DNA from: an uncultured bacterium
Lineage (GTDB): Bacteria; Armatimonadota; JACIXR01
Assembly (NCBI GenBank): GCA_938041455.1
Contig: CALITO010000003.1
Location: 98,548 to 162,547, forward strand
DNA length: 64,000 nucleotides
Direction: 5' to 3'
Shown: positions 2,607-34,429 of the stretch, piece after piece
How the letters are laid out: each line of letters begins with the position of its first letter
How positions within the stretch are numbered: position 1 is the first letter of the stretch
Position numbers and translations under genes: made by a program
The notes under the pieces: model-generated
Database searches by the model: none
What the model was told of the DNA's origin: nothing
What the model saw: the letters and a program-made list of their open reading frames with translations, nothing else

Positions 2607-3602
2607 GTGGCAAGGATATTCAAAGATGAAGAGGCAAACTTTGAGGTCCTCAAGGACAAAACAATTGCCATAATTGGTTATGGCAATCAGGGAGAAGCTC
2701 ATTCTCTTAATCTAAGGGATTCCGGTTTGAGAGTAATAGTGGCGGAGCTTCCCGATTCACCTGCCTGGAGAAGAGCTGAGGAAGCAGGTTTTAGTGTTGT
2801 GAGTGCGAAGGAAGCTGCGAGTATGGGGGATGTGGTTATGCTTCTCGTTCCCGATACTATTCAACCAAGGCTTTGGGAAGAGGAAATCGCCCCCAATATA
2901 AGGGAAGGTATTGCTCTTGGATTCGCTCACGGCTTTAACATCCACTATAACCAAATTAAACCACCTTCCACTATAGATGTTTTTATGGTTGCTCCAAAGG
3001 GTCCTGGGCGCCTGGTAAGGAGGATGTTTGAGGAAGGGAAGGGAGTTCCAAGCCTTGTAGCGGTGGAACAGGATGTTACTGGTTCCGCTTGGGATATCGC
3101 TCTTGCTTATGCGAAGGGGCTCGGTTCCACAAGGGTTGGGGTTATCCAGACTACCTTCAAGGAGGAAACAGAAACTGACCTTTTCGGTGAGCAGGTCGTC
3201 CTTTGTGGAGGAGTTACCGCCCTCATAAAAGCTGGCTGGGAGACATTGGTTGAGGCGGGATACCAGCCGGAGGTTGCCTATTTTGAATGTCTTCACGAGC
3301 TTAAATTGATAGTGGACCTCATTTACGAAGGTGGGATAGCCTATATGCGCCGCAGTATAAGCGATACCGCTGAATATGGCGATATGACGAGGGGACCACG
3401 TATCATTGACGAACTCGTAAGAGAGGAAATGAAGGAAATATTGAAGGAGATACAAAGGGGCGAGTTCGCCAGGGAGTGGATAATGGAGGGGAGGGCAGGG
3501 ATGCCGGTCTTCAATGCCCTGCGCAGAATAGAGGCTCAGCATCCCCTGGAAGAAGTGGGCAGAGAAATGCGTAAACTTATGCCCTGGTTGAAGCAAGGTT
3601 AA
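2607..3602 (+). CDS. ilvC: ketol-acid reductoisomerase IlvC
   Basis: Carries the [21 protein letters not shown] Rossmann motif and class I KARI length. GTG 2607 sits 10 nt after the AAGGAGG site at 2589-2596, whereas the ORF-track TTG 2598 abuts that site. Confidence 0.9.
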
Positions 3603-5955: not shown

Positions 5956-7047
5956 ATGTCCGTAGCGATGATAGGTATAAGCAAAGGAAGAGGAGAGTTA
6001 AAGGGAGAGGAGCGTTATATTAGGGCTATCGAGGAGGCAGGTGGTAAAGCTGTTATCCTTCCCCCCGGCAAGGGAGAGATAATACACAAATTAAATGGTT
6101 TGCTTTTGCCAGGGGGAGGAGATGTAAAGCCTTGTTTTTATGGGGAGGTTGAGCAAGGAAGCGAATCCATAGATGAGGAGAGGGATAAATGGGAGATAGA
6201 ACTTGCCCGCAGTTTCTTTAAGGAAGGAAAATCTATATTGGGAATATGCAGAGGGGCGCAGGTGTTGAACGTTTCCCTCGGGGGAACCCTCCATCAAGAT
6301 ATTAAAGGGCATAGGGAAGGGAGGCATTTGATCAAGATAGAAGAAGAGAGCTTGCTCTCTGATATCCTTGAGGGGATAAAGGAGATAGAGGTTGATTCCT
6401 CTCATCATCAAGCGGTAAAGGAAGTTGCTCCTTCTCTAAAGGAGGATGCCCGGAGCGGGGATGGCATTATAGAAGGGATAGAAGGAGAGGGTTTTATCCT
6501 CGGCGTTCAGTTCCATCCAGAAAGGATATATAAAGAGCAACCCATTATTTTCAATATATTTAAAAAATTCGTTCGAGCCTCTAAACGGGAGATATATACC
6601 TTAGGAACAAGCACGAGAAATTGGGAAGAGTTCATAGAAATCTTGAAGGCTTATGATGTGGAAGAAGTAGTGGATGTTAGAAGATTTCCTCTGAGCCGGT
6701 TGGAATGGTTCAGGAAGGAGGAACTTGAGAAGAGGTTGAGGGGAGAGGGGTTATTTTATATATGGATGGGCGAAGGATTGGGAGGCTATCGCTCACCTAG
6801 TTACCAAGCATACACTCGGACAGAGGAGTTCGGAGAAAGTTTGAAAAAATTATCTCAGCGAGCTTTGAGAAAGAGAGTGGTGATAATCTGTGCTGAGGCT
6901 TTACCCTGGCGATGCCATAGACGCTTCATAGCAAGTGCTATGGAGGAGAGGGGCTGGAAAGTTACCCATATAATAAGCAAAGGGAAAGAATGGTGCCCCA
7001 CTGAAAGGGTCCATCCCGAGGACGACCTCTTTTCGGAGGATGTTTAA
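5956..7047 (+). CDS. class I glutamine amidotransferase-like (peptidase C26 / gamma-glutamyl hydrolase-like) domain fused to a DUF488 domain
   Basis: The N-terminus carries the GICRGAQ nucleophile-elbow Cys and GVQFHPE His, matching the C26/GATase1 fold. The C-terminus carries IYTLGTS...VVDVRRFP...CAEALPWRCHRRFIA, typical of DUF488 (YeaO-like). Confidence 0.7.
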   Translation: MSVAMIGISKGRGELKGEERYIRAIEEAGGKAVILPPGKGEIIHKLNGLLLPGGGDVKPCFYGEVEQGSESIDEERDKWEIELARSFFKEGKSILGICRGAQVLNVSLGGTLHQDIKGHREGRHLIKIEEESLLSDILEGIKEIEVDSSHHQAVKEVAPSLKEDARSGDGIIEGIEGEGFILGVQFHPERIYKEQPIIFNIFKKFVRASKREIYTLGTSTRNWEEFIEILKAYDVEEVVDVRRFPLSRLEWFRKEELEKRLRGEGLFYIWMGEGLGGYRSPSYQAYTRTEEFGESLKKLSQRALRKRVVIICAEALPWRCHRRFIASAMEERGWKVTHIISKGKEWCPTERVHPEDDLFSEDV

Positions 7048-7056
7048 TGACTGAAA

Positions 7057-7980
7057 TTAACGGGGTGGGGAATAACCTTCCAAGGGTGCGAAGGCATCCA
7101 CCCAAGGTTGGAGCAGACGGCGCTTATCCTCCGGAAGGCGGAAGTAAGCCCTTACTCCTGCCGAAATTATAGGTTCAGCGAAGCTCGCTACTTGGGATTG
7201 CCTCTCAGGTGGTAGGGAGAGGAAGGCATTAACAGCGTTGGATAAGAAGACGGCGACATTCTGTATGATCCCGTCTCTTTGCTCAGGTGGTAGGGAAAAA
7301 AGACGGTCGAACAAGTTGCTCATCAGGTTCACTCGTTCCTCAGGTGACAACTGAAGAAATCTTTGATAGTTCTCCATAAATCGCTGGGGACCACTGGCTG
7401 GGGAAACTTCTTCTCCCTCTCCGCCAAATACTTGGGAGAAGTCATCCAGGTTTAAGGAAATGGTGGGCTTTGTTATGATATAAACTTTCTCCCAGTATAC
7501 CCCAGCGGAAGAACAGAGCCTGTCTATGATCCTTTCTATTCTTTGGTTTTTAAAACTGAGAGCATTCGTTGTGCCCTTTACATTAGGGTTCACCAGTATC
7601 CTAATTTTGCTCTCTTTTTCCAGTGCCTGTAAAGCATCGCTCAAAGGCGTTCCCTTATCAAAACTTATGGATACCAGGGGACCACCTAAGACCCGGGGCT
7701 TTTTAGTTTTTTGAGTAGAAACGAGGTAGCCCTCCTCCCACCTTGCAGAAACCTGGCTGGTGAGAGCATTCAAAACCTCCGATAAAGCCGCTTTATTAGC
7801 TTCGAGAGAAACCCTCTTCTCTATCGGTGATAGGACCAGTATTTTTACTCCCGCCTTTTCCTCTATCATTTTCACAGCGGAGTGGAAAGGCTCATCGATC
7901 ACCTTGAAGGTCAACAATGGGGAAGCGGCCAAACAAAGTCCTGTGATGCTAATGGTTACTAAAAGCAAATATCTTCTCAT
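7057..7980 (-). CDS. secreted protein with two STN-like (secretin/TonB N-terminal) domains
   Basis: Has a signal peptide and an AAGGAGGTG site 8 nt upstream of ATG 7980. The ISFDKGTPLSDALQALEKESKIRILVNP motif resembles an STN domain. Confidence 0.5.
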   Translation of the reverse strand: MRRYLLLVTISITGLCLAASPLLTFKVIDEPFHSAVKMIEEKAGVKILVLSPIEKRVSLEANKAALSEVLNALTSQVSARWEEGYLVSTQKTKKPRVLGGPLVSISFDKGTPLSDALQALEKESKIRILVNPNVKGTTNALSFKNQRIERIIDRLCSSAGVYWEKVYIITKPTISLNLDDFSQVFGGEGEEVSPASGPQRFMENYQRFLQLSPEERVNLMSNLFDRLFSLPPEQRDGIIQNVAVFLSNAVNAFLSLPPERQSQVASFAEPIISAGVRAYFRLPEDKRRLLQPWVDAFAPLEGYSPPR

Positions 7981-8019: not shown

Positions 8020-10221
8020 CTATATAGTCTTGTGAAACTTCCTAAAAGAGGAGAGGAAGCATAATAAGGTAAGGGATAGAAGGGAGATATAGAATCCCAG
8101 TTTGAAGGCGAAAGGGCGGAAGAGGAAGAGAAGACGGTGTTTCCCCGCTGGCACAGGGACGCTTCTAAAGATGTAATATGGAATTATCGCTTTCTCTTCT
8201 CCGTCCAGAAATGCTCGCCAGCCAGGGTAATAGGTATCGGTGAATAAAAAATAGCCTTCCTTTTCCCCCTCGATCTCAAACTCCACCCTATTTGGTGAGT
8301 AAGCCAGAAGCTTGGAGCTTCCTTGGGCCTGGAAAAATTGGTCAACAAAACTGAACCTTAAAGGGTTTCCCAAATAGAGATAAAGCTTTGTTTCCCCATC
8401 CCTGAGCAGTTTCAGATGGGAGGCATCTATATAGAAAGGAGAAAGGACGAACTTCACCCCCAAAATATCAAGGTTTTCCTTTCTCACAGAATTCGGCAAA
8501 AGCATATTACCGTTCTCTAACGGGGCGGTATTCTTACCTTCAAGGTTATCCAAAAAACTCTTGTAGGGAAGCAAAAAAAGGCTGTCATAGCCTCCTACAT
8601 TAAAAAGTTGATACACCATAGAAGTATTGGGGGGAAAACATGCGAGAGGATATCTATAAAGAGACCAGCGAGGAGTTATCGCCAATAACCTATAAAAACT
8701 TCCTTTGAGTTGCTCTACAAAAGGAAGGGGAGGGAAGAGCTTTTCAGGGGGGGAGAAATAGAGATGGCTGGAAGCAGTGGGGAAAAGGTCAAGAAGGAGA
8801 AGGGGGAGAAGGAGATAGGGAAGGAGTTTTTTTCGGAAAACGATGAATAGATAAAGGAAGAGAGGCAGGAGGAATAGTTTGAGGAAATCCATATAAGGGA
8901 AGGTGGGGGATACATCTCTTAAGATGGTGAATGGTTCCTCTCTTGGGGCTAAGGAGAAGAGGAGGAAGGGGAAAAGTATTATTGGGAAGAAGGTGGAGTG
9001 GAGGAAGCGGCGGGAAAAGGGTGTGCGGAGCAGGGTATCGAAACCTATTCCTGCTCCCGCAGATAGGCAAAGGACAAAGACGCTGATAAGACGAGCGGGG
9101 GAACCAGTTTGGCTCCAAGCAGGGAAAAGGAAATAAAAAGGGATGTTCAAGGGAGTGCCGAGTAAAAGAAGAAAGGAAAGCAGGGAGATGATTAGGAGGG
9201 GAAAGGCAAATTTCCTTTCCCCTCGCAAGGTGAAAGGCAGACAAAAAAGAGGTAAGATACCGAGATAGAGTGCGTATTCTATATATTCTCCCCTGCCCCA
9301 GTAGTTTCCCTTTGCGGGATTGCCGAAGAAGTTAGGCAGGAACAACCCTATAAGCCGTTCCAGTGGCAAAGAGAGGGAGATATAAGCGTTGTAGGATTGC
9401 CAACTGGTGCTTTCGGCTCTATGAGCAAAGCGGAAAAACTCAAACAAAGGGAGAAGGGCGAGGGAGGACAAAAGGAGCCCCATACCAGCTCCGAAAAGTG
9501 GGACAAAAGAACTGCCCAAGTAAACCCTCTTTTCCCAAGGGAGACGAAGCAGGAGGTAGATTATCAGTAGCCAAAGTGTATAAAGGAGGAATTGAGGGTG
9601 TCCCCCAAGGGCACTTAAACTGAGGGAGATTGCGCAGGTAAGGAAGGAATGCCAAAGTTTTTTCTCCAAAGCAAGTTCTACCCCGATTAGCGCGAGGGGA
9701 GCCCAAACGAAGGAGTTAGCCACGGTGGGTAAGGGTAGCCAAGCAGTGACGAAACTGCTGAGCATATAAGCGAGGGAGGCGAAAAGCGAGGCGTAGGCAG
9801 AAACCTTTATTTTTCTAAGGAAAAGATAAAGCAGAAAGCCAGCCAAGAACAAGTGGAAGAAAGAGTTGAAACCGAGAAACCTCTTTCCCAGAAGCGCGGT
9901 TAACCAATTAAATGGGTAGAAGATAGCGGATTGTCCGTTGGCGTAAAAGGGGGTGCCACAAAACTGATAAGGGTTCCAGAGGGGTAAGAACCCCCCTCGC
10001 AGGCTCTCGGCGAGAAAATTGCGCCAGGGATAAAACTGAGCGATGCTATCCCAAAGGAGAGGGTTCCATTGTATACCTTCCCGAGGGGAGCCAATCTCTG
10101 CCCACGGTTGAAAATGGAAAAGCATATCCGCGGGAGAGAAAATGTAGCCCAGAAAAACTCTCACCATCAAAAAGAACGCTACGAGAAGTAATAGAAGAGG
10201 GGGAAAAAGTTTTTTTAGCAT
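8020..10221 (-). CDS. YfhO-family polytopic membrane protein (putative glycosyltransferase)
   Basis: Multi-TM N-terminus with WxxYxFxGxPF-type motifs and a large C-terminal periplasmic domain. The start is placed at the internal Met (MLKKLF, 10221) because the further 48 nt of the ORF-track frame overlap the intergenic repeat. Confidence 0.65.
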   Translation of the reverse strand: MLKKLFPPLLLLLVAFFLMVRVFLGYIFSPADMLFHFQPWAEIGSPREGIQWNPLLWDSIAQFYPWRNFLAESLRGGFLPLWNPYQFCGTPFYANGQSAIFYPFNWLTALLGKRFLGFNSFFHLFLAGFLLYLFLRKIKVSAYASLFASLAYMLSSFVTAWLPLPTVANSFVWAPLALIGVELALEKKLWHSFLTCAISLSLSALGGHPQFLLYTLWLLIIYLLLRLPWEKRVYLGSSFVPLFGAGMGLLLSSLALLPLFEFFRFAHRAESTSWQSYNAYISLSLPLERLIGLFLPNFFGNPAKGNYWGRGEYIEYALYLGILPLFCLPFTLRGERKFAFPLLIISLLSFLLLLGTPLNIPFYFLFPAWSQTGSPARLISVFVLCLSAGAGIGFDTLLRTPFSRRFLHSTFFPIILFPFLLFSLAPREEPFTILRDVSPTFPYMDFLKLFLLPLFLYLFIVFRKKLLPYLLLPLLLLDLFPTASSHLYFSPPEKLFPPLPFVEQLKGSFYRLLAITPRWSLYRYPLACFPPNTSMVYQLFNVGGYDSLFLLPYKSFLDNLEGKNTAPLENGNMLLPNSVRKENLDILGVKFVLSPFYIDASHLKLLRDGETKLYLYLGNPLRFSFVDQFFQAQGSSKLLAYSPNRVEFEIEGEKEGYFLFTDTYYPGWRAFLDGEEKAIIPYYIFRSVPVPAGKHRLLFLFRPFAFKLGFYISLLSLTLLCFLSSFRKFHKTI

Positions 10222-10225
10222 ATTC

Positions 10226-10460
10226 AAAATTTTGGGTTTTGTTGAATAAAGGGAAAAGGAAAACAACATTCTCCTCCTCAGCGGTTTCCTCCCTTTCCTT
10301 TGGAATAAATAGCTTTACGAAAAGCGAAAAGAAACCATCTTTTATTAGCCATTTAACTTGAGAATCTCCTTCTAAAAATTTCTAAATGCTATATTTCTAC
10401 AAACTTCGTCATCCCTTCAAGGTGGAAGTTGAACGTTCTTTGAATTATTCAACAAAACTA
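10226..10460. repeat. intergenic repeat, copy 1 (about 85% identical to 31601..31840, same orientation)
   Basis: Direct read-off alignment with copy 2. Shared blocks include GGAAAC...GTTTCC (a 5-6 bp hairpin), TTATTAGCCATTTAACTTGA(G/C)A and AACGTTCTTTGAATTATTCAAC. Confidence 0.8.
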
Positions 10461-10472
10461 ACTTTGAAAAGA

Positions 10473-10838
10473 TCAACTGCGGGAGACGAATATCACTCCC
10501 CAACAGATAAGAAATACTCCCAGGACGCGGTATATATTCAGTGTGTCTTGAAATATGAGCCGGGATAAGATGGCGATGAAGGCGAAATTGAGACTTATAA
10601 AGGGGTATACGAAGGAAAGTTGAGCCTGGGAAATTGCCAAAATCCAAAATAAACTTGATACCGCATAGGCGAATAAGCCGAGTAGAACCCAAGGATTGAA
10701 AAAAGCACGGAGGAACTGCAAGTTAAACCCCGCTAATTTACCTTCTTGGTTTACTCCCCATTTCAAACTTACTTGCCCCGCTACGCCCAAAAAGAGGGCG
10801 AGGGATAAAGATAACCAGAAAGGAATTCCTTTGCTCAT
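10473..10838 (-). CDS. small 4-TM DMT/SMR-like membrane protein (ArnE/EamA-like)
   Basis: 121 aa with four predicted hydrophobic helices, adjacent to the YfhO-like glycosyltransferase. Confidence 0.45.
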   Translation of the reverse strand: MSKGIPFWLSLSLALFLGVAGQVSLKWGVNQEGKLAGFNLQFLRAFFNPWVLLGLFAYAVSSLFWILAISQAQLSFVYPFISLNFAFIAILSRLIFQDTLNIYRVLGVFLICWGVIFVSRS

Positions 10839-13804: not shown

Positions 13805-16342
13805 ATGGAGATAATACTCACTCATAAAGCGCCCGACGCAGACGCTCTTGCCTCTCTCCTGGGCGCATATCTTCTCTTCCCCAACTCCTTACCCCTTCGT
13901 CCAGAAGGGGCTCCTTACCCTAAACAACTTTTTTCCCTATTCGGCGATGTCCTGCCTCTTTACTTTCCAGAGGAAATCGCTTGGGGAAAGGTTGAGGGTG
14001 TTACCCTTGTGGATTGCTCCTCTTTGGAAAGGGTGGGGAATGTGGGCGAGGAGATAAGAAGGCGAGGAATTCCTTTAACAGTAATAGATCATCATTTAGA
14101 GACAAGGGGAGAAATAAATGTTCAGCGTAGTTTGGTCAAACCCTACGGCTCCGCTACCACAATCCTGGTAAGGATGATGAGGGAAAAGGGGATTTTGCCT
14201 TCTTCCTGGCAGGCTACGCTTTTGGCCTTGGGTGTATATTCGGATACAGGCTCATTAACCTACTCTTCAACAACTGAAGAAGACCTTCAAGCTGCCGCCT
14301 TCCTTGTTTCTTGTGGAGCGAATTTAGCTTACATTGCTTCCCTTCTCCATCCTCCCCTTTCGGAAGAAGAGAGGTCTCTTCTTGAGGAGATGAGGGATAG
14401 TTTACAAATCGAGGATGTAAAGGGGGTAAAAGTAGGCATAGGAAAAGCGACAAGGGAAGAGATGGACTTCAATCTCGCTCCCCTAGCGGAGTCATTGATG
14501 CAAGGGGAAAATGTAGATGCTCTTTTTCTTCTCCTCGAGGTAAAAGGTAAGACATACATCGTTGGTAGGAGTAGGGGAGAGATGTTCGAAGTTAAGGGGA
14601 TATTGAGTAGGTTAGGGGGAGGTGGACACAAGAACGCAGGTGCGGGGGTTATGCCTTGTTCTGTTGAGGAGACTAAGGAGCGGCTTCTATTCCTCTTGCC
14701 CCAGGGTGTGAAATGGGAGGTGGAAGCGGGGGACATAATGTCCTCTCCTGTAAAGGTTGTGTCCGCTAATGCTTGTGTGAAAGAAGCGCTGGAGGTTATG
14801 CGTTCTTTCGGCTTCAGCGGGCTACCTATTAACGAGAAAGGGAGAATAATCGGTGTAATAACCCGCAAGGAAGCGGAGAAATTGGCAAAATATGGAATGG
14901 GCAACCGGGAATTAGGAACCTTTGCTTATAGGGAACCAATTTCCGTGCATCCCCGAACAACCCTATCCCAGATTATAAAAGAGATGAACGAGAAAGGGGT
15001 TGGACGCTTATTAGTTATGGAAAGGGGAAAACTCGTCGGTATAATAACCCGCCAGGATATAATAGGTGCTTTATATGGTCAGAGATTGAAGGAAAGGAGG
15101 GGGGAGCAAATCATAGAGAATATAGAACCTAATTTAAAGGGGATACTTTGTAGAATAGGCGAGGTTGCTGCCTCTTTAGGAATGAGGTCTTATTTGGTAG
15201 GAGGGGTGGTGAGGGACATCATATTGGGCAAGGAGGTAAGTGACTTTGACATCCTGGTGGAAGGTAAGGCAATAGAGCTCGCTGAAAAAGTAGTAAAAGA
15301 GATGAATGGTGAGTTGGTATCTCACCAACGCTTTGGGACAGCCACGGTTAAGCTAGCCAGTGGTTTAGAAATAGACTTCGCTTCCGCAAGGCGGGAGTTC
15401 TACGAAAGGGCAGCGGTTCTGCCTATTGTGGAACCTGGTTCCCTAAGGGAAGACCTTTTTAGGAGGGATTTCACTATAAACGCGCTCGCCCTATCCCTAC
15501 ATCCCCAAGAATTCGGTTTCCTTATAGACTATTTCGGAGGATTAGACGACCTGAGAAACAAAAGGATAAAAGCCCTCCACAGTTTAAGTTTTTGGGAAGA
15601 TCCTACCCGCATACTGCGGGCTATAAGATTGGAGGCTAAGCTGGGCTTTAAAATGGAGAGATGGACAGAGGGGTTGGCAATAGACGCTATAAAAAGTGGA
15701 GCCCTTGCCCCCCTTTCGGGAGAGCGTCTGCGAGAGGAACTAAAATTGACGCTCGAGGAAAATCCCCTCGCTTGCTTGAGGAGAATGGAGGAGTTAGGGA
15801 TTATAAAAGCGATTCATCCCAAGGGAGAATTAGATAAGAAACTTCTGAGAAAACTGGTGAAAGAGTCCCTTGATAACTTAGAGGTGGAAAGATGGATTAT
15901 CTATCTCTATCCTCTTCTTAGCCAGTTGGATGAAGGGGAGATAAGGAGGGTCACCTATAGGCTGAGGTTAACTTCTTCCCAAAGGGAAAAATGTCTTGCC
16001 CTAATTTATGGGGAGGAGGCGAGGAAAAAACTCCAAGCCCCGAGAATGAAGCGAAGCCAAATTTATGAAGTTCTAAAGGGGATCCCTTTGGAAACAATAG
16101 TTTGGATAGGAGCAAAGGGAGACAGGAAAGTGAAAAAGAGAGTTTCCCTCTTTTTAGAGGAGCTTCGCCACATAAATCTTGCCCTCAAGGGCGAAGATTT
16201 AATACAATTGGGCATTGCGGAAGGACCTCAAATGGGCAAAATCCTACAGGAACTCTTCCAGGCGAAATTGGATGGTAAGGTGAAAAGCAGGGAAGAGGAG
16301 ATAAATTTCGTGCTTAAGAAAAAGGAGGGAAAGTTTGGCTGA
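13805..16342 (+). CDS. cca: DHH-DHHA1-CBS pair fused to tRNA nucleotidyltransferase / poly(A) polymerase head (CCA-adding enzyme family)
   Basis: The N-terminus has the HKAPDADAL DHH motif I and a GGGGHKNAGAG DHHA1 motif. Two CBS domains follow. Then come GGVVRDIILGKEVSDFDILVEG and RRDFTINALA nucleotidyltransferase motifs. Confidence 0.8.
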   Translation: MEIILTHKAPDADALASLLGAYLLFPNSLPLRPEGAPYPKQLFSLFGDVLPLYFPEEIAWGKVEGVTLVDCSSLERVGNVGEEIRRRGIPLTVIDHHLETRGEINVQRSLVKPYGSATTILVRMMREKGILPSSWQATLLALGVYSDTGSLTYSSTTEEDLQAAAFLVSCGANLAYIASLLHPPLSEEERSLLEEMRDSLQIEDVKGVKVGIGKATREEMDFNLAPLAESLMQGENVDALFLLLEVKGKTYIVGRSRGEMFEVKGILSRLGGGGHKNAGAGVMPCSVEETKERLLFLLPQGVKWEVEAGDIMSSPVKVVSANACVKEALEVMRSFGFSGLPINEKGRIIGVITRKEAEKLAKYGMGNRELGTFAYREPISVHPRTTLSQIIKEMNEKGVGRLLVMERGKLVGIITRQDIIGALYGQRLKERRGEQIIENIEPNLKGILCRIGEVAASLGMRSYLVGGVVRDIILGKEVSDFDILVEGKAIELAEKVVKEMNGELVSHQRFGTATVKLASGLEIDFASARREFYERAAVLPIVEPGSLREDLFRRDFTINALALSLHPQEFGFLIDYFGGLDDLRNKRIKALHSLSFWEDPTRILRAIRLEAKLGFKMERWTEGLAIDAIKSGALAPLSGERLREELKLTLEENPLACLRRMEELGIIKAIHPKGELDKKLLRKLVKESLDNLEVERWIIYLYPLLSQLDEGEIRRVTYRLRLTSSQREKCLALIYGEEARKKLQAPRMKRSQIYEVLKGIPLETIVWIGAKGDRKVKKRVSLFLEELRHINLALKGEDLIQLGIAEGPQMGKILQELFQAKLDGKVKSREEEINFVLKKKEGKFG

Positions 16343-26943: not shown

Positions 26944-26983
26944 TATATCGCAAAAAATTGCCCTCCTGTGAGCCACAGGAGGG
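26944..26983 (-). terminator. rho-independent terminator / possible attenuator hairpin between miaA and carA
   Basis: On the minus strand, the 10-bp stem CCCTCCTGTG-GCT-CACAGGAGGG is followed by CAATTTTTTG. The T-tract ends about 13 nt before the carA ATG. Confidence 0.5.
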
Positions 26984-27080
26984 CAATCTAAACTTCTTAA
27001 ACCCTTCCTAGCCTCACAGGACTAGATTTAAAGGGCTTCTTCAATTGTTAATTAAATTTTACTCCAAATAGAATATAAAG

Positions 27081-29935: not shown

Positions 29936-31501
29936 CTACTTTTCTCCCTTCAGGATTCCGTATTCTATTGACTCCACGAGCGCCTGCCAAGAAGCTTCAA
30001 TTATATTGGTTGAAACACCTATAGTGGACCACACATCCTCGCCGTCGAAAGACTCCACGAGAACTCTTACTTTTGCTGCTGTCCCCTCTGCTCCGCTTAT
30101 CACCCTCACTTTAAAGTCGGTTAGGCGAATTTTTTCCAACTCGGGATAGAACTGAAGAAGTGCCTTGCGCAGGGCATTGTCAAGGGCGTGGACTGGCCCA
30201 TCCCCCTCAGCCACAGTATGAGTAACCTTTCCATTCACGCTCAGCTTGAGAGTAGCTTCGGTGACGAATCCTTCGTCCTCGCTTCTTTTCTCAACTATTA
30301 CTCTCAATCCAAGGAGGTCAAAAAGTTTCCTATATCCACCAGTTATCTTCTTAACCAAAAGTTCAAAGGAAGCCTCCGCTCCCTCAAAATGATAGCCCTC
30401 CTTTTCCAGTTCCACCAGTTTATCAAGTATTAAGCGGGTCTCTCGTGAATCCTTTGTGAGGTCTATGTCAAGCCTACGGGTTTTATAAACGATTGTAGAA
30501 GCTCCTGATAGTTCAGAGACGAGGATTCTTCTTTCATTTCCCACCGCCTCCGGATTTATATGTTCATAAGAGTGGGGGTTCTTCATTATCGCGTCAACAT
30601 GGATACCTCCTTTATGTGCGAATGCTGACCTTCCAACGAAGGGCATATTGCTGGCAGGCACGATGTTGGAAACCTCGGCAACGAAGTGAGATAACTCAAC
30701 GAGGTTCTTCAATTTCTCTTCCGGAATTACTTCAATTCCCATCTTCAACACAAGGATGGGAATAACCGAGCAGAGATTAGCGTTTCCACAGCGCTCACCA
30801 TAACCGTTTATAGTGCCCTGGATATGGACTGCCCCCGCTTGCACCGCAGCGATGGTATTGGCCACGCCAGTCTCGGAATCGTTGTGGGCATGAATACCAA
30901 TTGGCGCTTTTATTTTGTCCCTAACCTTGCCGGTAATCTCCCCCACCTCGTTGGGAAGACAGCCGCCGTTCGTGTCAGCGAGGCAAATTATATCCGCTCC
31001 CGCTGACTCAGCTGCTAACAAACATTCCATAGCATAAGTGGGGTCAGACTTATAACCATCAAAGAAATGCTCTGCGTCGAAGATTACCTCCCTGTTGAAG
31101 GATTTAAGGAAGCGGATTGAATCCTCTATCATCTTCAAATTTTCCTCAAGCGAGACACGGAGGACCTCCTTCACATGGAAATCCCACGATTTACCGAAGA
31201 TGGTGACCACGGGGGTATCCATTTGAATGAGCATAACGAGATTGGTGTCATCTTCTGGCTTCCTATTTGCTCTCCTTGTTGAGCCGAAGGCGGCAAGCTT
31301 GGCTTTTTGAAGGGGTTCCTCCGCCATCTTCTTGAAGAAGGCAAGGTCCTTAGGGTTTGAAGCAGGCCACCCTCCTTCAATGTAGTGGATCCCGAACCAA
31401 TCTAATTTACGGGCAATGCGGATTTTATCCTCTAAGGAGAAGGATATGCCCTCCATCTGTGCGCCGTCTCTTAAAGTGGTATCATATAGAGTAATCGTCA
31501 T
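29936..31501 (-). CDS. cimA: (R)-citramalate synthase / 2-isopropylmalate synthase family protein
   Basis: N-terminal TLYDTTLRDGAQMEGISF and IEGGWPASNPKD signatures, as in CimA-type enzymes. The HxH metal site (IHAHND) and a C-terminal LeuA-dimer regulatory domain are present. Confidence 0.8.
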   Translation of the reverse strand: MTITLYDTTLRDGAQMEGISFSLEDKIRIARKLDWFGIHYIEGGWPASNPKDLAFFKKMAEEPLQKAKLAAFGSTRRANRKPEDDTNLVMLIQMDTPVVTIFGKSWDFHVKEVLRVSLEENLKMIEDSIRFLKSFNREVIFDAEHFFDGYKSDPTYAMECLLAAESAGADIICLADTNGGCLPNEVGEITGKVRDKIKAPIGIHAHNDSETGVANTIAAVQAGAVHIQGTINGYGERCGNANLCSVIPILVLKMGIEVIPEEKLKNLVELSHFVAEVSNIVPASNMPFVGRSAFAHKGGIHVDAIMKNPHSYEHINPEAVGNERRILVSELSGASTIVYKTRRLDIDLTKDSRETRLILDKLVELEKEGYHFEGAEASFELLVKKITGGYRKLFDLLGLRVIVEKRSEDEGFVTEATLKLSVNGKVTHTVAEGDGPVHALDNALRKALLQFYPELEKIRLTDFKVRVISGAEGTAAKVRVLVESFDGEDVWSTIGVSTNIIEASWQALVESIEYGILKGEK

Positions 31502-31600
31502 TTACACTACCTCCTACAAAAGAAATTTTAACACCACACCCTATATTTAGCAAGCGAACATAAAAGCAACAGGCACCCACCTTTTTCCATTATTTAAACA

Positions 31601-31840
31601 AAAAATCCCAAAATTGGTTTTGTTGAAAAAAGAAAAAAGGAAACGCATTCTCTTCCTTAGCGGTTTCCTCCCTTTACTTGGGAATAAATGGCTTTACAAA
31701 AACGAAGAGAAACCCTGTTTATTAGCCATTTAACTTGACAATCTTCTCCTAAAAATTTCTAAATGCTACATTTCTATAAACTTCATCATTCCCCCAAGGG
31801 GGAAAGTGAACGTTCTTTGAATTATTCAACGAAACTTAAA
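31601..31840. repeat. intergenic repeat, copy 2 (about 85% identical to 10226..10460)
   Basis: Read-off alignment. Sits between the cimA start (31501, minus strand) and the promoter of the 31919 gene. Confidence 0.8.
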
Positions 31841-31856
31841 AATTAAATTTTCCCAC

Positions 31857-31885
31857 TTGACGCACCCCCTCTTTTGTGCTACTAT
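31857..31885 (+). promoter_or_regulatory. candidate promoter for the prepilin/DUF1559 gene
   Basis: TTGACG, a 17-nt spacer, then TGcTACTAT (extended -10). An AGGAGG site lies 7 nt before TTG 31919. Confidence 0.4.
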
Positions 31886-31918: not shown

Positions 31919-32638
31919 TTGAGAAGAAGAGGTTTCACCCTAATTGAGTTACTCGTCGTCATAGCAATTATTGCTATTCTTTCTGCTATCCTCTTCCCTG
32001 TGTTCAGCAAGGCAAGGGAGAAGGCAAGGCAGATAACCTGCACCAGCAATATGCGGCAGGTGGGTCTGGCTGTGAGGATGTATCTTCAGGACTGGGACGA
32101 GCGCTACCCTCCAGCTTCCTACTGGAAAACTCGCCTTCAACCATATATGAAGAGCGTAGACCTCTTCAAATGTCCCAGCAGACCTCAGCTCCCTTGGTAT
32201 TATGGACATGGCTATAACATAGGATATGCTGGCATTTATCCCCCTGTATATGGCTTCATAGAATTGACCTCTCTTCTCCCTGGTGGTATTCCAAACCCTA
32301 ATGCTCCGGGGAGAAGCGATGCCTCCATAACCTCTCCTTCAAGTAAAATATTCGCTCCTGAGTGGGATAGATGCAACGCTGGACCTCCCGTGGGTCCCGT
32401 GGGGCTTTTTCACGGGGGGGCTACTTCCTATTGGGCGGTTTGCCGAGTCCACAATGGTGGTTCAAATGTCTTATTTGCGGACGGACATGTGAAGTTTATG
32501 AGACCAGAGCAGTATCATAGCAATACCGACCATATAGACGCAAATGGCATCCCCGTGGACGAGAATGGCAACCCCATAGGTCCCGATGCGGTGGTGGAGG
32601 AACAAATCTGGCGCACCTACTGGGATACGAATTATTAG
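31919..32638 (+). CDS. prepilin-type N-terminal cleavage/methylation domain protein with a DUF1559 (H-X9-DG) domain
   Basis: N-terminus [28 protein letters not shown]-terminal [12 protein letters not shown]9-DG motif. Confidence 0.8.
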
Positions 32639-32646
32639 CTAAGGTA

Positions 32647-33168
32647 ATGAGGGCTTTTCAATGGTCTGTTAAGGACTTAACGAGGGCGAGCTTCCTTGGA
32701 GCTTTAGGGCTCGCCCTTCCTTTTCTCTTCCATCTCGTGGGTGCGGGGAGGATATTCTTGCCTATGCATATCCCCATCCTACTGGGAGGTTTTTTACTTC
32801 CCCCAACTCTCGCCTGCTTTCTTGGTGCAGTGGTGCCGTTTCTCTCCTCACTTCTAACTGGTATGCCACCTATCCTTCCCACGATGCCAATTATGGTCCT
32901 TGAGCTCGCTGGGCTGGGGGGAATAACGGCAATTCTCTATCACAATCTGAAAGTCGGCGTATGGGGAAGTCTAATAGGGGGGATAGTGGGAGATAGGTTT
33001 GTCCTTGCTCTCGTAGTTCTAATCCTTGGGAGATGGTTGGAGGTCAAATCCCCCATCGTTTATGTAGGTGGAGCGGTGATGACGGGCATTCCGGGGATTA
33101 TTTTGCAACTCTTAATCATTCCCCCCATAATTTATTTTTATGAGAAGCGCAAAAGGGAAGGGGGATAA
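32647..33168 (+). CDS. putative ECF-transporter substrate-specific (S) component
   Basis: 173 aa with 5-6 TM helices, sitting immediately upstream of, and overlapping, the EcfT/EcfA fusion gene. Confidence 0.5.
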   Translation: MRAFQWSVKDLTRASFLGALGLALPFLFHLVGAGRIFLPMHIPILLGGFLLPPTLACFLGAVVPFLSSLLTGMPPILPTMPIMVLELAGLGGITAILYHNLKVGVWGSLIGGIVGDRFVLALVVLILGRWLEVKSPIVYVGGAVMTGIPGIILQLLIIPPIIYFYEKRKREGG

Positions 33169-34429
33169 ACTCTGGATTATATTCCCTTCCTTTCTTATCC
33201 TTCCTTTTCTAATCCCTTGGATTAAGGGGAAATTCTTGCTTTCCCTTCTGCTTTTCTCCTTCTTTCTCCTTTTCTGCTACCGCATAAAATGGGAATGGTT
33301 TAAAAAAAGGTTTCTGCCTTTCCTTATATCTATAACTACGCTGACCTGCTTCTCACTACTTCTTGGGGGATCCAGAGATAAGATAATAGAACTCGACGCC
33401 CGTTGTGCAGGCGTTTTTCTTCTCTTTTCCCTTGTCACGAGCCAAATTACTCCCTCCCAGCTTTTGAGGATTTTCTCAAAAGAAGGAAAGCCCTCTTCGA
33501 TTGCCTTATTTTTCTATCTTACTTTCCGTTATTTTTCTCTCCTCTTAGAAGAAGGACAAAGGATGGTTCGTTCTGCTCAAGCGAGGGGAGGAGAGATGAA
33601 GAAGATAGTTTGGAGGTCCTTTAAACTCTTCGTAAATTATATTCTGAGAATTTTGAGGAGGAGCGAGGTGGTAGCGATGGCTATAGAAGCGAGAGGCTGG
33701 GAGGGGACGGAGACGCCCCCTCTATCTCAAGATGAGATAAGGTTGGAGGATGTTTCATTTACCTATCCCGATGGTAAAGAGGCGCTGAAGAATATAAACT
33801 TGAGGATAGGAAAGGGAGAAAGGGTGGCGATTTTGGGGAGAAATGGGGCGGGGAAATCGACCCTCCTTTGGGTTATAGGGGGATTTCTTAAGCCCAGGGG
33901 GAAGGTGAATGTCTTCGGAATAGAGGTGAAGAAAGAGAATCTTCCCAAATTGAGGAAAATAGTGGGCATAGTGTTTGAAGACCCCGAGGACCAGCTTTTA
34001 ATGCCCTCGCTTATTGAGGATGTTATGTTCGGTCTATTGAATATTGGTTATAGAAGGGGTGAAGCGGAGAGGTTGGCGAGGGAGGAATTGAAGAGGTTTG
34101 GTTTAGAAGGGTATGAAGAAAGCCATCCCCACGATTTATCACAGGGTGAGAAGAGGAGGGCATCTTTGGCAGGTGTAATGGTGATGAGACCACAACTTCT
34201 ACTTTTGGATGAGCCGAGCGCCAATTTGGATGCCCGAGGGCGCAAGGAATTGGTGGATATTTTAAAGGGACTGGATGCAACCTTTCTCCTTGCCACACAC
34301 GATTTCCAACTGGTGAGGGCGCTCTGCCCGAGGGCGGTTGTCCTCCTTGAAGGCGAAGTTGTTTACGATGGCGCAATGAAAAGTTTAGTAGAACAAAGGC
34401 AACTCTTAGAGGGCTGGGGGATATTATAG
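33140..34429 (+). CDS. ECF/CbiQO-type transporter: T (transmembrane) component fused to an ABC ATPase
   Basis: The N-terminal membrane half carries the two EcfT coupling-helix Ala-Arg-Gly motifs (SAQARGGE, AIEARGWEG). The C-terminal half has Walker A GRNGAGKST, the LSQGEKRR signature and Walker B LLLDEPSANLD. Confidence 0.7.
   Translation: MRSAKGKGDKLWIIFPSFLILPFLIPWIKGKFLLSLLLFSFFLLFCYRIKWEWFKKRFLPFLISITTLTCFSLLLGGSRDKIIELDARCAGVFLLFSLVTSQITPSQLLRIFSKEGKPSSIALFFYLTFRYFSLLLEEGQRMVRSAQARGGEMKKIVWRSFKLFVNYILRILRRSEVVAMAIEARGWEGTETPPLSQDEIRLEDVSFTYPDGKEALKNINLRIGKGERVAILGRNGAGKSTLLWVIGGFLKPRGKVNVFGIEVKKENLPKLRKIVGIVFEDPEDQLLMPSLIEDVMFGLLNIGYRRGEAERLAREELKRFGLEGYEESHPHDLSQGEKRRASLAGVMVMRPQLLLLDEPSANLDARGRKELVDILKGLDATFLLATHDFQLVRALCPRAVVLLEGEVVYDGAMKSLVEQRQLLEGWGIL

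Follow-up and report, generated by a model that had tools for sequence, protein, structure and literature searches.

An intergenic repeat between cimA and a DUF1559 gene of an uncultured bacterium is probably a MITE with IS903-type ends

The intergenic region between the citramalate synthase gene cimA and a prepilin-type DUF1559 gene contains a sequence of about 220 bp that recurs in a second intergenic region 21 kb away, which raises the question whether this repeat is a regulatory device of the adjoining genes or a piece of mobile DNA. The window, i.e. the whole stretch of 64,000 nt that was analysed, had received a first-pass annotation that paired the two regions (31601-31840 with 10226..10460) and proposed that the repeat might act on either gene beside it. 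The pairing is real and far above chance, with blastn aligning the two copies at 85.5% identity over 235 nt (E 1.6e-71), and the intergenic placement of copy 2 between cimA and the DUF1559 gene holds as well. An nhmmer profile built from both copies delimits the direct repeat pair at 10236-10458 (copy 1, E 4e-77) and 31617-31835 (copy 2, E 4e-74) and finds no third copy within the 64-kb window. A repeat search gave two collinear blocks, and MAFFT and blastn place the copies at ~10225-10459 and ~31609-31836. The interval 31601-31840 does contain the element but is ~5-16 nt too wide, since the inverted repeats described below put the ends at 31617 and 31835. Homology between the copies stops at the inverted repeat on the right and reaches ~10-12 nt beyond it on the left. 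The element is small (219-223 bp), AT-rich and non-coding: no ORF is common to both copies, as indels shift the frames and the sequences differ, and a tRNA search of the element found none. Coordinates are collected in Table 1.

Table 1. Positions of the repeated element, its ends and the features around it, numbered from the first letter of the window
Feature	Position	Strand	Remarks
YfhO-family membrane protein	8020..10221	-	conserved start 10221; ORF open to 10269, inside putative MITE
Candidate 9-bp target duplication, left of copy 1	10227..10235		AAATTTTGG; preceded by ATTCA, the WTTYA half of the IS903 target motif
Putative MITE copy 1	10236..10458	+	223 bp, between EamA-like and YfhO genes; nhmmer E 4e-77
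Left terminal inverted repeat, copy 1	10236..10249	+	GTTTTGTTGAATAA; 14/14 complementary to 10445-10458; 15/18 to IS903B
SD-like run within copy 1, with ATG	10267..10293	-	GGGAGGAAACCGCTGAGGAGGAGA + ATG; in frame with YfhO
Right terminal inverted repeat, copy 1	10445..10458	-	15/18 to IS903B
Candidate 9-bp target duplication, right of copy 1	10459..10467		TAACTTTGA; 6/9 to left partner
EamA-like small membrane protein	10473..10838	-	upstream operon partner of YfhO
Citramalate synthase (cimA)	29936..31501	-	Pfam HMGL-like, HCS_D2, LeuA_dimer; homologues so named
Predicted native cimA core promoter	31525..31553	-	TTGCTA-N17-TAAAAT; outside the element, between element and gene
Candidate target duplication, left of copy 2	31608..31616		CCAAAATTG; 5/9 to 31836-31844
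Putative MITE copy 2	31617..31835	+	219 bp, non-coding; nhmmer E 4e-74; without conserved ORF
Left terminal inverted repeat, copy 2	31617..31630	+	GTTTTGTTGAAAAA; with one flanking base 14/18 to IS903B
SD-like run within copy 2, with ATG (as in copy 1)	31646..31672	-	33-codon ORF, different frame
Extended -10-like site in copy 2	31764..31772	+	TGCTACATT; faces DUF1559 gene; consensus match alone, no good -35
Right terminal inverted repeat, copy 2	31822..31835	-	GTTTCGTTGAATAA on minus strand; 14/18 to IS903B
Candidate target duplication, right of copy 2	31836..31844		TTAAAAATT
Native DUF1559 promoter-like site	31857..31885	+	TTGACG-N17-TACTAT with TG; outside the element; aligns with L001
Prepilin-type N-terminal methylation/DUF1559 protein	31919..32638	+	Pfam N_methyl + SBP_bac_10

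The two copies have diverged in a manner that speaks to their nature. Over the 223-column alignment of the element they are 85.7% identical, and the 32 columns that differ comprise 28 substitutions (20 transitions and 8 transversions) and four gap columns. These changes are spread rather than clustered, as the first-pass annotation had it: the variance-to-mean ratio per bin is 0.78, and the longest identical stretch, 24 nt, is at chance level (P 0.53). Such an even and transition-biased pattern suggests neutral drift, unlike what would be expected of a constrained RNA or operator.

Both copies carry at their ends a 14-bp terminal inverted repeat, GTTTTGTTGAATAA, whose arms are complementary at all 14 positions in copy 1 and at 12 of 14 in copy 2. 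With up to two mismatches allowed, this motif occurs six times in the window against 0.5 expected, and four of the six are the ends of the element. Its likeness to the ends of IS903 was tested by direct end-to-end comparison. A 54-nt IS903 end had more than 5000 plasmid matches at 95-100% identity (100% among the matches listed), lying under features annotated as 'IS5-like element IS903B family transposase'; on plasmid Rts1, IS903B is 1057 bp long, both of its ends read GGCTTTGTTGAATAAATC, and a 9-bp duplication, GACACAACG, lies on either side of it. Against this 18-bp inverted repeat, both ends of copy 1 match at 15 positions and both ends of copy 2 at 14, while the two ends of a repeated element found at the borders of the related locus L001 match at 15 (left end of that element, at the end of L001) and 16 (right end, at its start). 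The block TTTGTTGAATAA stands at equal offset from the tip in all six ends examined and in IS903B, and the window ends have 12 contiguous bases identical to IS903B within the 18-bp repeat. An agreement of 14-16 out of 18 at six ends with a known transposase-binding end would be hard to get by chance.

This link to IS903 consists of 18 bp of end sequence alone. The element and IS903/IS903B (IS5 family, IS903 group) have TTTGTTGAATAA(AT) identical and at the same distance from the tip, but there is no similarity inside the ends, and IS903B has its own 1057 bp, 18-bp inverted repeats and 9-bp target duplication whereas the window element is devoid of a transposase gene. The inverted repeat of IS903 starts with GGC and that of the window element with (G/A)GT; the former is hosted by Enterobacterales, the latter by an uncultured lineage near Dictyoglomota/Armatimonadota. 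A tblastn search of the window and the related loci with the IS903B transposase gave no match. An IS6/IS26-type end, presumably TGTTGCAAA, was dropped because the IS903 match was better and verified by comparison, and a reading of GTTGAAT/ATTCAAC as an integron attC site was rejected since the orientation is the reverse of that of attC. Just left of copy 2, at 31590-31603, lies TTATTTAAACAAAA, which is 86% complementary to the left inverted repeat and may be either a degenerate solo end or an AT-rich coincidence. Members of the IS903 group are found in other phyla and are able to carry outward promoters (PMC3281130).

IS903 produces a 9-bp duplication (PMC2577343, table 1; PMC9282650) within the target motif WTTYA-N9-TRAAW (PMC2577343, table 1). 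The 9-bp flanks of the window element are degenerate, with 6/9 identical positions for copy 1 and 5/9 for copy 2, a level compatible with chance in AT-rich DNA (P ~0.04-0.14 each). Outside copy 1, ATTCA stands at exactly 9 nt from the left end and TGAAA at 6 nt from the right end, an arrangement that fits the IS903 target motif; the flanks of copy 2 fit it poorly.

Copy 1 is inserted relative to related genomes. Two related loci, L005 and L006, have the gene order of the window (M48 peptidase, S26 signal peptidase, EamA-like, YfhO and FecR_C-like) and YfhO orthologues of 74-75% identity, but the distance from the EamA-like stop to the YfhO start is 17 and 20 nt, respectively, versus 251 nt in the window. 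Since the orthologous spacers are this short and the surplus is the element, copy 1 is an insertion. Moreover, removing the element and one 9-bp duplication from the window spacer (251 - 223 - 9) leaves 19 nt, which compares with the 17 and 20 nt of the relatives and supports a duplication of ~9 bp at copy 1. No clean empty site was found for copy 2 among the related loci compared, and the body of the element is absent from 11 related loci (~146 kb).

The insertion of copy 1 bears on the start of YfhO. Inside the element, a strong SD-like run is followed by an ATG at 10269, in frame with YfhO, and by a TTG at 10266, and the database product P0121 (748 aa) begins at these positions (10269/10266). 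The YfhO proteins of the relatives start with MLK(R/K)..., corresponding to the window ATG at 10221. The called start (10222-10269, minus strand) adds 15-16 N-terminal residues that are absent from all relatives; it is either an annotation artefact or a start that a MITE would have donated. As the ancestral ATG at 10221 is no longer preceded by an SD, the internal SD and ATG of copy 1 probably now provide the translation start of YfhO. The equivalent SD-like run and ATG open a different frame in copy 2 and are thus not conserved as coding sequence.

The same type of end also bounds a larger repeated element in a relative. The closest cimA proteins, at 84-91% identity, belong to bacterial MAGs, with Dictyoglomaceae and Armatimonadota as the nearest named relatives (65-68%). 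L001, whose cimA is 91% identical, has ...TTATTCAACAAAAC at its start and GTTTTGTTGAATAA... at its end, both repeats facing outward (positions 1-26 and 14771-14822). The two break points recur in L153 (1-30 and 14780-14871), which was assembled independently from a different sample. Breaks of this kind are what a multi-copy element would cause. The 14-mer of its inverted repeat is identical to that of the window element and extended to ..AAAT as in IS903, whereas its interior, of which L153 shows 89 nt, is unrelated. In this interior an open frame begins with TTG at nt 30, similar to the TTG start of the IS903B transposase ORF at nt 33; the 20-residue peptide of the L153 open frame (query doubled) had no match in a protein search. 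Provided that it encodes a transposase, as these features suggest, the L001/L153 element is likely an autonomous relative of the window element and probably represents its parent IS. A different short repeat, (T/A)TTAGTCCACAAAGC, occurs at L031 ~65-100 and ~345-385 and at L030 ~15-45, i.e. twice upstream of cimA in another relative and also close to the end of a contig; it may represent a further family of small repeats.

As to the genes around copy 2, the first-pass annotation had placed the element about 100 nt upstream of cimA and directly upstream of a good promoter for the DUF1559 gene. Both descriptions are borne out: the start of the cimA-like ORF (31501, minus strand) is ~100-115 nt away from the element, and the TTGACG-N17-(TG)TACTAT site is found at 31857-31885 on the plus strand, 22 nt past the right end. 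Copy 2 is thereby located between two divergent predicted core promoters, those of cimA and DUF1559, that are intact. The cimA core promoter motif also stands 5' of cimA in L001, L030 and L154, none of which has the element. The idea that the repeat acts in cis on either gene finds no support here, since the core promoters lie outside the element and are kept in relatives without it; neither do the neutral-looking substitutions, the lack of an Rfam family and the lack of a common RNA fold favour a regulatory reading. A side effect of the element on the adjoining genes may nevertheless exist.

Several observations concern the same neighbourhood. The core promoter TTGCTA-N15-TGTTAAAAT and the AGGAGG SD of cimA are kept across relatives (window 31525-31553, minus strand; L001 ~7830-7860; L030 ~45-75; L154 ~3235-3265) despite a differing upstream gene, which is DUF1559 in L001/L153, an MFS transporter in L004/L155 and tricorn-like genes in L154. 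The extended -10-like site of copy 2 has a counterpart in copy 1, TGCTATATT, at 10387-10395. In L001, a short inverted-repeat-like sequence, GAAGTTGTTGAATGATTTAAA (6795-6815), adjoins the DUF1559 promoter where the right end of the window element lies; it may represent a solo end or a recurrent target, or be due to chance, and the remainder of the 1175-nt spacer of L001 is unrelated to the element. A T-box or leader-peptide attenuator for cimA was rejected, given that Rfam yields no T-box match, that the 33-codon ORF of copy 2 is not conserved in copy 1 and that the native promoter is downstream of the element. Further along, a CbiQ-type ECF transmembrane domain and an ABC ATPase domain are united in one ORF at 33140-34429 (plus strand), which follows an ECF S-component and the DUF1559 gene; L001 has this arrangement too.

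Searches for copies beyond the two of the 64-kb window found none in GTDB representative genomes, among the matches listed from JGI metagenomes, in IMG/VR or in plasmids, which is a point against reading the repeat as a MITE. An exact 23-mer pattern of the element had no match in GTDB genomes or in JGI metagenomes. An 18-mer of its interior had 23 matches in GTDB representative genomes, all by chance, and an 18-mer of the inverted repeat had at least 120 in JGI metagenomes, those among the matches listed (AT-rich loci) being all chance matches, although genuine copies may lie beyond these. Two element patterns gave no match in IMG/VR, and blastn of the element and of the L153 element end against plasmids returned nothing significant.

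Could the repeat be something other than a transposon? One alternative is a duplicated cis-regulatory module made of TTGAAT/ATTCAA half-sites, placed 5' of YfhO and cimA or serving the DUF1559 promoter. On the minus strand each copy is indeed upstream of a gene, a palindrome, TTGAATTATTCAA, and the half-site of the left inverted repeat are kept in both copies, as is an extended -10-like TGCTAYATT, and a similar ATTCAAC motif lies beside the DUF1559 promoter in L001. Yet the relatives have these genes without the element, with empty sites and with native promoters outside it; the distance to the downstream start is 0 nt in one case and ~115 nt in the other; no sigma-70-like promoter inside the element passes a promoter scan; substitutions are uniform, with no protected block above chance; and the supposed operator is itself an IS903-type inverted repeat. 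We therefore regard such a module as very unlikely. A repeat of non-transposon origin, such as a segmental duplication, a recombination remnant or other mobile DNA whose likeness to IS903 would be coincidental, appears highly improbable in turn. It would account for the presence of two copies in the window, for the lack of a clean target duplication and for that of a transposase in the window or related loci, but it accommodates poorly the end of homology at the right inverted repeat and within ~12 nt of the left one, the identical 14-mer that bounds a different repeated element in a relative and the match of 14-16/18 at six ends to a transposase-binding end.

Least credence is given to the idea of a pair of paralogous RNA genes or leaders, small and structured, in which the inverted repeat would form the closing helix. 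The terminal helix does form in all four folds (both strands of both copies), copy 2 folds better than its shuffles on the plus strand, one of the arm changes of copy 2 retains a G-U pair on that strand, and the best sub-threshold Rfam match is to suhB/mmgR (24.5 bits versus a gathering score of 41), driven by a CCUCCC run. Nonetheless, no family reaches threshold in either copy under gathering or E-value cut-offs, and the fold z-scores disagree among copies and strands (-3.6 for copy 2 and -1.4 for copy 1 on the plus strand; -0.6 and -2.9 on the minus strand). The terminal helix is all that the folds have in common, since internal structures differ and copy 1 has only a degraded version of the hairpin inside copy 2; besides, no terminator is common to both copies and the element is absent from close relatives. 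One Rfam family alone passes its threshold in the window: a PyrR binding site (RF00515) at 26952-27038 on the minus strand (66.4 bits versus a gathering score of 54), which presumably serves a pyrimidine operon as its leader.

The reading that we favour with good confidence is that the repeat is a non-autonomous MITE. It is small and non-coding (219-223 bp, no common ORF, no tblastn match to the IS903B transposase), it has terminal inverted repeats at its bounds (14/14 and 12/14), and copy 1 displays a presence/absence polymorphism relative to L005 and L006. With somewhat less assurance, we propose that its ends are substrates of a transposase of the IS903 group (IS5 family), as judged from inverted repeats of the GGCTTTGTTGAATAAATC type matching at 14-15 of 18 positions in the window. 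The terminal inverted repeats, their likeness to IS903 ends and the insertion of the partner copy relative to relatives were all absent from the first-pass annotation. Mechanistically, both terminal inverted repeats, (G/A)GTTTTGTTGAATAA, would be bound by a DDE transposase whose gene lies elsewhere and which most likely belongs to the IS903 group; this enzyme would move the element to AT-rich targets, of which ~9 bp would be duplicated; the parent IS in L001/L153 would be a DDE-transposase element with ends AGTTTTGTTGAATAAAT. The insertions would have occurred after the lineage split from the sampled relatives, copy 1 splitting the EamA-like/YfhO gene pair and copy 2 taking a harmless place, and both copies would now be old relics under neutral drift.

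Compared with known prokaryotic MITEs (Correia/NEMIS of Neisseria, ERIC, RUP and the QMITEs of Coxiella; reviewed in PMC10969869), the element is likewise small, non-coding and AT-rich, has inverted ends, and is located in intergenic regions near promoters and in an operon spacer. It is also missing from the orthologous site in relatives and, as these can do, would donate an SD and a start codon. It differs from the named families in having no sequence similarity to them, two copies in the 64-kb window and degenerate target duplications.

A more far-reaching version of the MITE reading is that both copies have been co-opted together: copy 1 would give YfhO its RBS and start along with 15-16 additional N-terminal residues, and copy 2 would give an outward promoter, TGCTACATT, or sites that couple cimA and DUF1559 to a common regulator. 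As a joint claim this seems unlikely. If it were true, an IS903-type system would be active and rewiring expression in a deep-branching lineage near Dictyoglomota/Armatimonadota.

To conclude, the element is most likely of an ordinary kind, and its host, an uncultured bacterium, is an unusual one. The understanding of MITEs is unchanged by it, and its value lies mainly in annotation and cataloguing. Accounting for the intergenic repeat as mobile DNA guards against its annotation as a regulatory RNA or an operator, and the YfhO start inside a putative transposon is flagged as either an annotation artefact or a real neo-start. IS903-type ends appear to exist far outside Proteobacteria, in a poorly sampled thermophile-related lineage, where elements that carry them appear to break metagenomic assemblies.
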